15,492 nt of DNA from Raineyaceae bacterium. GTDB lineage: Bacteria > Bacteroidota > Bacteroidia > Cytophagales > Thermonemataceae. The stretch is from assembly GCA_043772375.1 (NCBI GenBank), contig JAYVGJ010000233.1, positions 1 to 15,492 on the forward strand, read 5' to 3'. The notes beneath the pieces were generated by a model that was not told where the DNA came from, did not search any database, and saw only the letters and a program-made list of their open reading frames with translations. Below, piece by piece: positions 3,053 through 7,083 of this stretch. Position 1 is the stretch's first letter. Every line of letters begins with the position of its first letter. The position numbers and the translations under genes are program-made.

Positions 3053-3062
3053 TACATTTTTT

Positions 3063-3100
3063 AATTATGAATTGTAAGTTGTAAATTATGAATGAATACA
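3063..3100 (-). repeat. Gene-start-proximal motif, copy 2 (minus orientation; reads TGTATTCATTCATAATTTACAACTTACAATTCATAATT), about 10 bp upstream of hutG ATG
   Basis: Reverse complement matches the motif family; immediately precedes the hutG start codon at 3052. Confidence 0.6.
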
Positions 3101-3171
3101 GTTTTAGAGTGTTTTTGACCACCTAGGAATAAGTTGTTAATAATATCTTGGTTTCAAAGTTTACATAGTTA

Positions 3172-4408: not shown

Positions 4409-4447
4409 TGTATTTAATTCACAATTCACAATTTACAATTCACAATC
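4409..4447 (+). repeat. Gene-start-proximal motif, copy 3: TGTATTTAATTCACAATTCACAATTTACAATTCACAATC, about 10 bp upstream of rsfS ATG
   Basis: Four tandem TTCACAA/TTTACAA heptads seen directly. Confidence 0.6.
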
Positions 4448-4461
4448 ATTAATAAAGTCAA

Positions 4462-4914: not shown

Positions 4915-4946
4915 TTTTGTAATTGACAAAAAAATGTGTATTTTTG
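4915..4946 (+). promoter_or_regulatory. Bacteroidota-type sigma-A promoter (TTTG-N20-TATTTTTG) for the small lipoprotein gene
   Basis: TTTG at 4915-4918 and a TAnnTTTG match TATTTTTG at 4939-4946; about 75 nt upstream of the ATG at 5021. Confidence 0.45.
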
Positions 4947-5020
4947 GTAAAGTTTAGTTGAGATTAGGAAATAATAATCAGTTAAGAATAATTTTAAAAG
5001 TGTTTAAAAAAGTGTTTGAT

Positions 5021-5197: not shown

Positions 5198-5208
5198 TTA
5201 TTTTAACA

Positions 5209-5235
5209 GTTGTGAGTTTTGAGTTGTGAGTTAAT
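5209..5235 (-). repeat. Gene-start-proximal motif, copy 4 (minus orientation: ATTAACTCACAACTCAAAACTCACAAC), no adjacent minus-strand start codon
   Basis: Sequence comparison; followed by ataatataatat and a tgataatcaattta box that is shared with copy 5. Confidence 0.5.
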
Positions 5236-5322
5236 ATAATATAATATATTGATAATCAATTTAGTACACATCAAGACGTAAATTTAATCATAGCAATTTT
5301 ATAATAATTATTATTTATAATA

Positions 5323-5463
5323 ATGTCAAAAATTATCAAAATCTTTATTTTTAGTATTTGTGCAATATTTTTACTAGAATCTTGTACGCCTTCTTTTAAG
5401 AAAAGGCGCAAGGGCGCACCGCCAAAATCTGGAAAAATTCCTTGCCCAGTCAAAGACTGCTAA
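5323..5463 (+). CDS. Second small basic lipoprotein (46 aa; MSKIIKIFIFSICAIFLLESC + TPSFKKRRKGAPPKSGKIPCPVKDC), tandem paralog-like partner of 5021-5197
   Basis: Found by manual translation (below the 60 aa ORF filter). Classical signal peptide plus Cys; the 60 aa minus-strand ORF 5271-5453 called on the opposite strand has an implausible composition. Confidence 0.45.
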   Translation: MSKIIKIFIFSICAIFLLESCTPSFKKRRKGAPPKSGKIPCPVKDC

Positions 5464-5468
5464 AATAG

Positions 5469-5508
5469 TTGTGAGTTGTAAGTTATGAATTGTGAGTTAA
5501 TACAAAAT
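5469..5508 (-). repeat. Gene-start-proximal motif, copy 5 (minus orientation: TTTTGTATTAACTCACAATTCATAACTTACAACTCACAAC)
   Basis: Sequence comparison; followed by the same tgataatcaattta box as copy 4, indicating a duplicated roughly 250 bp module (lipoprotein gene + motif). Confidence 0.55.
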
Positions 5509-5674
5509 ACTGATAATCAATTTATTATGAACTTCCACATAAAGACATAAAAATCAAGTAAAAGAAGTAATACCTCTGCAATTGCATCTGCAAATGTACG
5601 TGTATTGCTTCTTTTTTGTGTGTTCATTTTGTTTAAGCTACAAAAAATACCAAAAACCATTGTTTGTATTTTCA

Positions 5675-5721: not shown

Positions 5722-6429
5722 ATGAAAAAACTTATTATTGCCTTAGATGGCTATTCTGCTTGTGGCAAAAGTTCTACGGCAAAGCTCGTAGCAGCACAAT
5801 TAGGCTATTCTTATATAGATACTGGGGCTATGTACCGTGCCGTTACACTTTATTTTTTGGATAATTACGTGGAACTAACCAATCCAAAAGCCATTAAAAC
5901 TGCCTTAGATAAGATAAATATCACTTTTGAACACAACCCTCTCACACAACTTAGTGATACTTTTCTTAATAATCTTAATGTAGAAGATGAAATCAGGAAA
6001 ATGTATATCTCCCAGAATGTCAGCCAAGTAAGTGCTATTACGGAGGTGCGCAAGGCAATGGTGGCACAACAACAAAAAATGGGTAGGAAACGGGGTATTG
6101 TGATGGACGGCAGAGATATTGCGACAACTGTCTTTCCTGATGCAGAAGTAAAAGTTTTTATGACAGCGGACACCGTTATACGTGCCTCACGCCGCCAAAA
6201 AGAACTTTTTGCAAAAGATGAGATTGTTGATTTGGATATTATTCTAGAAAATATCAAAAAAAGAGACAATATAGATTCTACACGTGAGGAAAGCCCCCTT
6301 AGAATGGATAAAGAGGCTTTTTTGTTGGACACGACCTTTATGACTGTTGATGAGCAAGTGGATATAGTTTTGCAATTAGCCACCAGCAAAATGATAGCCA
6401 TTAACAAAGAATTAGGAATTGCAAATTAG
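5722..6429 (+). CDS. cmk: Cytidylate kinase
   Basis: 235 aa from the internal ATG. MKKLIIALDGYSACGKSSTAKLVAAQLGYSYIDTGAMYRAVT is the CMP kinase P-loop/N-terminus; the ORF-track start at 5605 is an upstream extension through the tandem repeat. Confidence 0.9.
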   Translation: MKKLIIALDGYSACGKSSTAKLVAAQLGYSYIDTGAMYRAVTLYFLDNYVELTNPKAIKTALDKINITFEHNPLTQLSDTFLNNLNVEDEIRKMYISQNVSQVSAITEVRKAMVAQQQKMGRKRGIVMDGRDIATTVFPDAEVKVFMTADTVIRASRRQKELFAKDEIVDLDIILENIKKRDNIDSTREESPLRMDKEAFLLDTTFMTVDEQVDIVLQLATSKMIAINKELGIAN

Positions 6430-6783: not shown

Positions 6784-6851
6784 TTGTGATTACTTAGTTA
6801 AATCTTATGAATGACAAGTTTTTGTTTCAAATAAACAAATCTCCTCAATAA

Positions 6852-6890
6852 AAATCCCTTTTAATTCAATTTAAAAGGGATTTTTATTTT
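6852..6890 (+). terminator. Strong rho-independent terminator (13-bp stem aaatcccttttaa/ttaaaagggattt + ttttatttt)
   Basis: Perfect 13-bp stem with a 6-nt loop and T-run. Confidence 0.75.
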
Positions 6891-6907
6891 ATAAATTACA
6901 AAACCTA

Positions 6908-7024
6908 GTCGTAGTGTCCCACTACGACTGCAAAAGGTGTATTGAGCGTCCCGCTCCTATATTTACTACACAAATAAGCGGGACGCTTGAATACATTGAA
7001 CAAGTCGTAGTGGGACACTACGAC
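6908..7024. repeat. REP/BIME-like cluster of four GC-rich self-complementary units arranged symmetrically about position 6966: gtcgtagtg-tcc-cactacgac (6908-6928), agcg-tcc-cgct (6945-6955), agcg-gga-cgct (6977-6987), gtcgtagtg-gga-cactacgac (7004-7024)
   Basis: All stems verified base by base; partner units differ only by the inverted loop (tcc vs gga); spacers are not complementary; lies between convergent genes. Confidence 0.7.
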
Positions 7025-7083
7025 CAGAAAACTTTTCCGAAATTTAAGCCGTTCTTAGTATAGTTGCGAGTCCGTAATGGGAT

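Follow-up and report, generated by a model that had tools for sequence, protein, structure and literature searches.

REPINs and their RAYT transposases have been studied almost only in Gammaproteobacteria, where they are discussed as long-lived and vertically inherited genomic replicators. The closest described systems to the locus considered here are those of RAYT subclass 2.6 (Quentin et al. 2018, PMC6006769), which corresponds to group 5 of Bertels (PMC5581495) and is found mostly in Bacteroidetes. The RAYTs of this subclass carry the motifs NH[LIV]H, WQ and YIH[QN]NP and have a mean length of 179 aa (PMC6006769). Two REPs of Aequorivita have been reported, GCTAG-CGCGAGCG-TCC-CGCTCGTG from Aequorivita sublithincola and GCTGG-CGCGGGCG-TCC-CGCCCGTG (PMC6006769, Table S1). 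The REPs of the subclass depart likewise from the GT[AG]G foot and their stems were generalised as 'weaker' (PMC6006769). For group 5, the flanking 16-mers were found at about 31 occurrences per replicon (Bertels et al. 2017, PMC5581495), and according to a preprint of 2022 an association with REPINs is confined to groups 2 and 3 (10.1101/2021.07.10.451892). Both the literature and the NCBI annotation models thus already covered this family, its enzyme and REP design in general, and the kind of element is a known one which has hardly been described so far in Bacteroidota.

The present analysis concerns the window, that is, the whole 15,492-nt stretch of Raineyaceae DNA that was read. Its positions 6900-7031 very probably represent a REPIN derived, by loss of the gene, from a RAYT locus of Quentin subclass 2.6 (Bertels group 5) that encoded an HUH/Y1 enzyme. 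This assignment draws on direct observations of the anatomy of the element, its dispersal, its intergenic position, its match to the flanks of a RAYT gene, its collinearity with the locus after removal of that gene and the polymorphism of the site. Accordingly, the element would be mobile but neither coding nor autonomous. It would consist of two inverted REP halves, both of them compound: the CT[AG]G foot is followed by a hairpin of 9 bp, then by a spacer and a further hairpin of 5 bp, and the loop of both hairpins is TCC.

The complete REPIN-like element measures 132 nt (6900-7031, plus strand). It was delimited from the consensus of 13 copies, the collinearity with the RAYT flanks and the fold as one hairpin, and its plus strand corresponds to the sense strand of the RAYT gene at the parental locus. 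The sequence-only reading had described four perfect hairpins at 6908-7024, symmetric about position 6966, and their coordinates and sequences were confirmed. The units therefore stand, while the extent given for them falls short of the full conserved element, which in the consensus runs from AAAACCTAG to CCAGAAAA with flanks that diverge outside. The left outer REP unit (6905-6928, plus strand) consists of the foot CTAG, which overlaps the first stem base, and the hairpin GTCGTAGTG-TCC-CACTACGAC at 6908-6928. It is followed by the left inner hairpin GAGCG-TCC-CGCTC (6944-6956, plus strand), invariant across the 13 copies, and by a central loop (6957-6975, plus strand), which was placed by alignment to the gene-less form of locus L035 and is the most variable part of the family. 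The right inner hairpin AAGCG-GGA-CGCTT (6976-6988, plus strand) corresponds to the one found directly after the RAYT stop codon in loci L035-L045. The right outer unit (7004-7027, minus strand) reads CTGG-TCGTAGTG-TCC-CACTACGA on the minus strand, and its hairpin at 7004-7024 appears as GTCGTAGTG-GGA-CACTACGAC on the plus strand. The foot is CTGG in the right unit of 12 of the 13 copies and CT[AG]G in all 13, in place of the canonical unpaired 5' GT[AG]G foot of REPs; a GTAG is present inside the stem of the outer unit and not at its foot. The 18-base pattern of the outer unit occurs twice in the window against 0.00 expected from window shuffles.

The spacers had been described as non-complementary, which was refuted by the partial pairing of GGTGTATTG with GAATACATT. 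Folding, which had been proposed as a check, returned one long hairpin for the whole element, with an RNA minimum free energy of -75.8 kcal/mol against -26.4 +/- 3.2 for shuffled sequences (z = -15.3); the DNA fold has -44.4 kcal/mol (z = -13.5), and the terminal inverted repeats measure 21-25 bp. The four hairpins are thus the two arms of a single 132-nt element and not four separate units. The mirrored TCC and GGA loops find their explanation here, because they are exactly what is expected when a palindrome whose loop is asymmetric is repeated in the opposite orientation.

Dispersal was assessed by a scan for GTCGTAGTG-NNN-CACTACGAC in 185,579 species genomes (596 Gb). Thirty loci were obtained, whereas a pattern of 18 specified palindromic bases should turn up by chance at about nine sites in this amount of sequence, and two matches in GC-rich actinobacteria look like chance-type ones. 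Ten of the 30 loci come from a single MAG, Raineyaceae bacterium GL49_Down_concoct_216 (JAYVHJ01), and contain at least 15 exact outer units, mostly in pairs 84-103 nt apart with a TCC and then a GGA loop and with window-like internal sequence. Exact outer units were also found in three further MAGs, namely a second Raineyaceae, 'bacterium 341R_metabinner_26' and a Cytophagales MAG. The further copies which the earlier reading had proposed to count therefore exist in related genomes, as intergenic inverted pairs with the spacing just given. The element as such recurs in at least nine copies in one Raineyaceae MAG and in at least four related assemblies, where the copy number (about 10-20, perhaps) is a lower bound from one fragmented MAG. 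A BLAST comparison with all fetched loci gave 13 full-length copies with 82-93% identity to the window copy, and their alignment has a mean column identity of 83%. The nine copies that do not adjoin the RAYT gene are all intergenic (9/9), with flanking genes in convergent, tandem or divergent order. Several copies were found at contig ends, and one Logan contig breaks within a unit, which is the expected behaviour of repeats in assemblies; such elements break the metagenome assemblies of this lineage and should be masked by annotators. The element was absent from the viral contigs, plasmids and phages of the collections searched. The exact stem GTCGTAGTG/CACTACGAC does not appear in the supplements of Quentin et al. 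2018 (PMC6006769), and those literature matches to the stem string that were looked at belong to unrelated studies in which it occurs incidentally.

A screen for HUH motifs among the ORFs of the loci fetched led to the transposase, one ORF of 183 aa lying directly beside a unit (L012). The protein matches Pfam Y1_Tnp (E = 2e-10) and scores 96.3 bits with the NCBIfam model NF047646 'REP-associated tyrosine transposase' (cut-off 80), while the IS200 model gives 31.1 bits, below its cut-off of 55. It carries the RAYT motifs NHIH and YIHQNP, and H60, H62 and Y145 are invariant among 26 homologues. A phmmer search of the PDB with one RAYT sequence gave no match; with a profile of the 26 homologues, the best match among solved structures was E. 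coli TnpA-REP (4ER8), and the alignment covers both the HUH and the Tyr motif. The distant RAYT homologue P0002 (L062) was set aside, its flanks being without recognisable units.

The flanks of the RAYT gene contain the units of the element. In L035 the gene is preceded by CTAG TCGTAGTG TCT CACTACGA CTGCAAACAATGTATT GAGCG TCC CGCTC, with 26 nt from there to the ATG, and its TAA is followed by TGAAAC and then by AAGCG GGA CGCTT GAATACATTAAATAG GTCGTAGTG GGA CACTACGAC CAGAAAA. The same arrangement holds throughout L035-L040, with the left half of the element 5' of the gene and the right half 3' of it. In L042-L045 the gene has two whole elements upstream, and one downstream together with truncated right ends, all in the orientation of the gene. 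Two of these loci, L042 and L044, belong to assemblies ERZ27314323 and ERZ27314326, which share series and contig naming with the window contig (ERZ27314285 k141_5579412). In a global alignment the window element is collinear, end to end, with L035 minus the gene, and its central loop keeps the TTTAC.AC of the RAYT 5' leader and the ..AAG that precedes the right half. Because the alignment to the gene-less L035 is collinear, the window element can be read as the transposase locus from which the transposase is missing.

The neighbours of the RAYT gene are a 2-hydroxyacid dehydrogenase on one side and a glycoside hydrolase 3/beta-lactamase protein on the other in several lineages; they are common to L035, L036 and L039 and partly present in L038. 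The RAYT gene appears to be single-copy and syntenic. No RAYT gene was found in the window or in the readable parts of the 39-kb contig, and the RAYT link to the genome of the window itself rests on contigs of sibling assemblies. The search for a RAYT which the earlier reading had proposed was nevertheless successful in relatives and sibling assemblies, where the gene is flanked by the units of the element.

Additional structures were observed around the gene. Tandem truncated right ends lie 3' of RAYT at 1184-1420 of L042 and 3553-3800 of L038 (..CTACGACCAGATAA, GGGACGCTACGACCAAATAA, CATTACGACCAAATAA), where the stump ..CTACGACCAGATAA is present three times in L042 and CATTACGACCAGAAAA in L038. 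One right half in these stretches bears an internal deletion between two GGGACGCT repeats. The tandem stumps suggest repeated action at the right end, of which they would be the scars. In L041 (1-76 of a 657-nt contig) the region upstream of RAYT is the reverse complement of the normal flank, joined at the position of the left half, which is explained either by a real inversion or by an artefact of fold-back at the hairpin during assembly.

The site beside the sigma gene allowed a comparison between relatives. For the sigma-factor protein only one close cluster is present in the protein collection, and its members gave the orthologous loci. The element is present in the window, in L031 and in L047, the last of which is identical to the window. 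Loci L046 and L048 are without it and keep the sigma gene, the 52-aa gene and the bidirectional terminator, with intergenic gaps of 230 nt and 155 nt, respectively, where the window has 300 nt. The loci become similar to the window again at TTTATAAAATAAAAATCCC, so that the left boundary falls at 6896-6900; on the sigma side the sequence cannot be aligned, the empty sites as a whole are not alignable base for base and the boundaries of the insertion are approximate. An A-rich target, AAAAC, may be suspected. Presence of the element at the orthologous site is polymorphic between sister lineages, and the strain comparison suggested earlier has been answered by an orthologous intergenic site that is empty in two of them. 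Two other loci, L032 and L034, were rejected as empty sites, as the sigma protein is the same and the downstream gene is different, so that their intergenic regions are not orthologous. Short GTACGAAGTACGA-type repeats were also seen adjoining REPINs (L007, ~120-140; L029, ~4930-4955). Such repeats occupy the position of the window's REPIN in L046 (~3110-3150).

The element lies between convergent genes, on the sigma-gene side of an older bidirectional terminator at 6850-6889 which it adjoins. This placement, together with a T-rich run that follows the left unit on the minus strand and was flagged as terminator-like, would fit a host-selected terminator or mRNA-stabilising stem-loop that recurs by operon need and not by movement, and REPs have been co-opted for both roles (PMC3733652). 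We hold such an origin to be very unlikely. The adjacent terminator is itself canonical and bidirectional, and it is the only terminator there in the element-less sister lineages; moreover, copies occur in convergent, tandem and divergent contexts alike. The identity of 82-93% holds over 132 nt, including the parts outside the stems, and taken together with the match to the flanks of the transposase gene it implies descent from one source and not convergence. The REPIN at the window site is probably either neutral or a second stem-loop at the 3' end of the sigma transcript.

Movement by an ordinary selfish insertion sequence instead of a domesticated RAYT was considered as well, the element being in that case a MITE of a DDE-type IS or a PATE of a multi-copy IS200/IS605 element. 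The 21-25 bp terminal inverted repeats would fit this, as would the size of the element, which is typical of MITEs, and a DDE transposase fragment was seen near the distant RAYT homologue of L062. We nevertheless judge this origin highly improbable, as there is no target-site duplication in the 13 copies (at the two ends of a copy, the 4-mers that adjoin CTAG and CCAG on the outside show no co-variation) and the ends of the element are themselves hairpins. Furthermore, the only transposase bracketed by the units is a Y1 enzyme which passes the RAYT equivalog model and stays below the IS200 cut-off, and the neighbours of its gene are constant in several lineages.

Pairing within the family was compared with that expected from descent. 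For the long hairpin, 91.9% of the cells are paired in the 13 copies with 0 compensatory pairs, and for the four local hairpins 98.3% are paired with one compensatory pair (T-A to C-G, in one right unit). Covariation within the family was indistinguishable from shuffles for both the long and the local hairpins, the copies being too similar, and identity by descent accounts for the pairing as well as selection for structure does. A search of Rfam at a permissive threshold gave nothing at the gathering threshold; the best match, MIR7127 (a plant miRNA precursor; 33.8 bits vs 100), is generic long-hairpin noise. We find it scarcely credible that the element encodes a small structured RNA or serves as a recombinase site, which would be a palindrome whose centre is asymmetric. 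Its very stable fold and palindromic arms around an asymmetric 3-nt centre are met by the lack of an Rfam family and of covariation within the family on the one hand, and by the absence of a recombinase gene nearby and a centre too short for the core sites of tyrosine recombinases on the other.

The comparison across lineages is more informative in its fixed foot and loop over varying stems. It comprises nine REP variants from five Bacteroidota lineages, three from the present lineage, two flanking the RAYT of Pedobacter psychrodurus, one from Pedobacter rhizosphaerae, one from a Cryomorphaceae MAG and two from Aequorivita; they were hand-picked as hairpins, so their 100% pairing is partly built in. 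Six of the eight stem pairs are changed on both sides, while three parts are fixed, namely the C-T-[AG]-G of the foot, the stem top and the T-C-N loop. Such natural variants, in foot, loop and co-varying stems, form a set for testing DNA recognition by this RAYT subclass. In Pedobacter rhizosphaerae (NZ_FOGG01000004.1, ~175.4-176.5 kb; L020 7453 and 7672, L013 495) three direct copies of a >200-nt repeat were observed, which (at ~220 nt) starts with CTG-GTCGTAGTG-TCT-CACTACGAC-CTATAATA.AGTCGTAGC. This three-unit cluster was discarded as a RAYT locus, there being no ORF of at least 100 aa between the units.

The transposases of IS200/IS605 and E. coli TnpA-REP act on single-stranded DNA, where they recognise folded hairpins and cut and rejoin nearby. 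We know of no demonstration of transposition or cleavage for any RAYT of subclass 2.6. By analogy with these enzymes, the apparently single-copy RAYT would bind the folded hairpins on single-stranded DNA and would cut and rejoin next to them without target duplication, by which the doublet could be copied or moved in trans; the conserved foot and the G-TCC-C tip of the hairpin would be the likely recognition determinants. The view that the hairpins form a REP family mobilised by a RAYT, first put forward by the sequence-only reading, found support in the dispersed intergenic copies, the RAYT with the same flanking units and the empty sites of the sisters. On a broader scale, we lean slightly towards the view that group 5/subclass 2.6 RAYTs of Bacteroidota maintain true REPIN populations, in the form of fixed 132-nt inverted doublets which are gained and lost at orthologous sites and which follow a different code (CT[AG]G foot and G-TCC-C tip, each half with two hairpins). 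It is also possible that a single RAYT acts on other hairpin families which have only this tip in common, such as the GTTTGGTG-TCCC pair at the end of the window and the CCCCACGT-GGA hairpins.

The first of these is a second palindromic element at 15396-15492 (no strand assigned), which is cut by the end of the window and is present as a whole at 2157-2288 of L031. Its three tiers are GTTGCTGTAAA/TTTACAGTAAC, TTCGTTGCA/TGCAACGAA and the unit pair 15433-15456/15468-15491, the pair being GTTTGGTG-GGGA-CACCAAAC at 15435-15454 and GTTTGGTG-TCCC-CACCAAAC at 15470-15489. The full palindrome of ~130 nt has a DNA fold of -38.6 kcal/mol (z = -7.7). Its loop order, GGGA and then TCCC, is the reverse of that in the 6900-7031 family, and its feet are not CT[AG]G. 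The first 30 loci gave no exact copy of the pair. Within 300 kb of related DNA, fuzzy searching gave only one similar unit (6157-6181 of the Cytophagales MAG L005), and a scan of JGI metagenomes gave 12 unrelated singletons, about the expectation for a 19-20-mer with a modest excess. One Logan contig ends right at this palindrome. The pair described earlier is thus present, while its kinship with the 6908-7024 family found no support, only the G-TCC(C)-C tip being in common and further copies being absent from these searches.

A start-less ORF had been noted beside the pair. It indeed reads through one unit and has its TAA stop in the spacer, but its standing as a gene is doubtful: a word search gave no homologues, HMMER against 1.8 billion representatives gave four weak matches, to giant proteins, and the gene callers left it uncalled on long contigs. 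The frame is probably not a gene. The idea of a small lipoprotein gene split by the element was likewise dropped, the downstream frame having no homologues beyond those four weak HMMER matches. A signal-peptide-like mini-ORF lies upstream of the element, and removal of 3n+1 nt restores the frame.

Two more hairpin structures were recorded. A third GC-rich palindrome occupies positions 1-47 of the window and continues into L031 (17638-17712). It starts with AAAACCACCCC-taa-CCCCTCCTT-gaa-AAGGAGGGG and goes on as aacaaagct-CCCCTCCTT-cct-AAGGAGGGG-ct-GGGGGTGGTTTT, the 39-kb ENA contig ending ~16 nt past it; none of the fetched loci gave another copy. The hairpin (TT)CCCCACGT-GGA-ACGTGGGG(AA), followed by ACG(G)ACAAAA, was observed at 4144-4160 of L063 and 472-494 of L025. 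The two sites belong to two genomes, have different upstream flanks and are apparently non-orthologous, and the hairpin may be a further REP family.

Elsewhere in the window, a direct repeat CGGACACTTTT lies at 7917-7927 and 7938-7948, 21 nt apart and at a distance of ~235-265 nt 5' of the ECF sigma gene. All six orthologous loci conserve it, including those without the REPIN. The link to the hairpin family that had been raised for it is not sustained, because the repeat is kept upstream of the sigma gene also in loci without the hairpin element; the pair is probably a regulator or promoter element of the upstream control region of the sigma gene. Runs of a 7-nt unit (TTCACAA/AATTCAC; TTGTGAA on the other strand) were seen at 267-312, 3058-3100, 4414-4456, 5203-5243, 5463-5527 and 14407-14452. 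They lie just 5' of at least five gene starts in the sense of the gene (RNase G/E, arginase-family, rsfS, cmk and vault-like) and may be a lineage-specific leader or promoter element. The region 11838-14327 (minus strand) encodes an 829-aa bacterial MVP-like protein with the shoulder domain of the major vault protein (PF11978, E = 3.8e-28) and a vault repeat domain.

Among the known systems, the REPIN-RAYT pairs of Pseudomonas and Enterobacteria (groups 2 and 3; Bertels & Rainey 2011, PMC3116915) resemble the present one in the long hairpin formed by inverted REPs, in the dispersed extragenic copies and in a Y1 gene which is flanked by REPs, syntenic and inherited in a vertical-looking manner, and which here too appears single-copy. 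They differ in the foot (GT[AG]G there, CT[AG]G here), in RAYT group and phylum, and in number, hundreds of copies being known there against about ten seen here. E. coli BIMEs are likewise intergenic clusters of inverted REP units, but they are mosaics of Y and Z REPs with defined linkers, whereas a fixed doublet with one unit type and a unique spacer is found here. The specific likeness to BIMEs which had been proposed thus found no support, with no mosaic structure, one unit type and one fixed spacer. The GTAG-type REPs of Campylobacterales (Sulfurovum) have the identical 9-bp stem GTCGTAGTG...CACTACGAC in five loci but differ in an unpaired canonical GTAG foot, CCT/TTT/ACC loops, other flanks and another phylum. 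These five (L002, L004, L010, L014 and L016) are Campylobacterales/Sulfurovum MAGs with REPs of the form cGTAG-GTCGTAGTG-CCT-CACTACGAC-at. IS200/IS605 elements and their PATE/MITE derivatives share the HUH/Y1 enzyme, the subterminal hairpins on single-stranded DNA and the lack of target duplication, and their non-autonomous form also arises by gene loss. In contrast to them, the enzyme here passes the RAYT and not the IS200 model and appears single-copy and syntenic, and there is no tnpB.

The closest match is to the REPtrons of subclass 2.6, under which the present RAYT would be filed on the basis of its motifs and the REP design and not of phylogeny. The two agree in phylum, in RAYT motifs and in protein length (183 aa here against a mean of 179). 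Common to their REPs are the CT[AG]G foot, the 8-bp stem ending in G and the TCC/TCT loop, as well as copies of the flanks elsewhere in the genome; the core of the Aequorivita REP CGCGAGCG-TCC-CGCTCGTG is the inner hairpin GAGCG-TCC-CGCTC here. They differ in that another stem sequence, strong stems and two hairpins per half are present here, arranged as regular 132-nt inverted doublets which were undescribed for subclass 2.6 in the 2018 study (PMC6006769). What the present locus adds for the subclass is therefore the regular inverted doublet, a REPIN in the strict sense, with two hairpins per half and a polymorphic site. As a case from an uncultured member of the Cytophagales, it extends the REPIN life style outside Proteobacteria, to a RAYT group said to be without REPINs.
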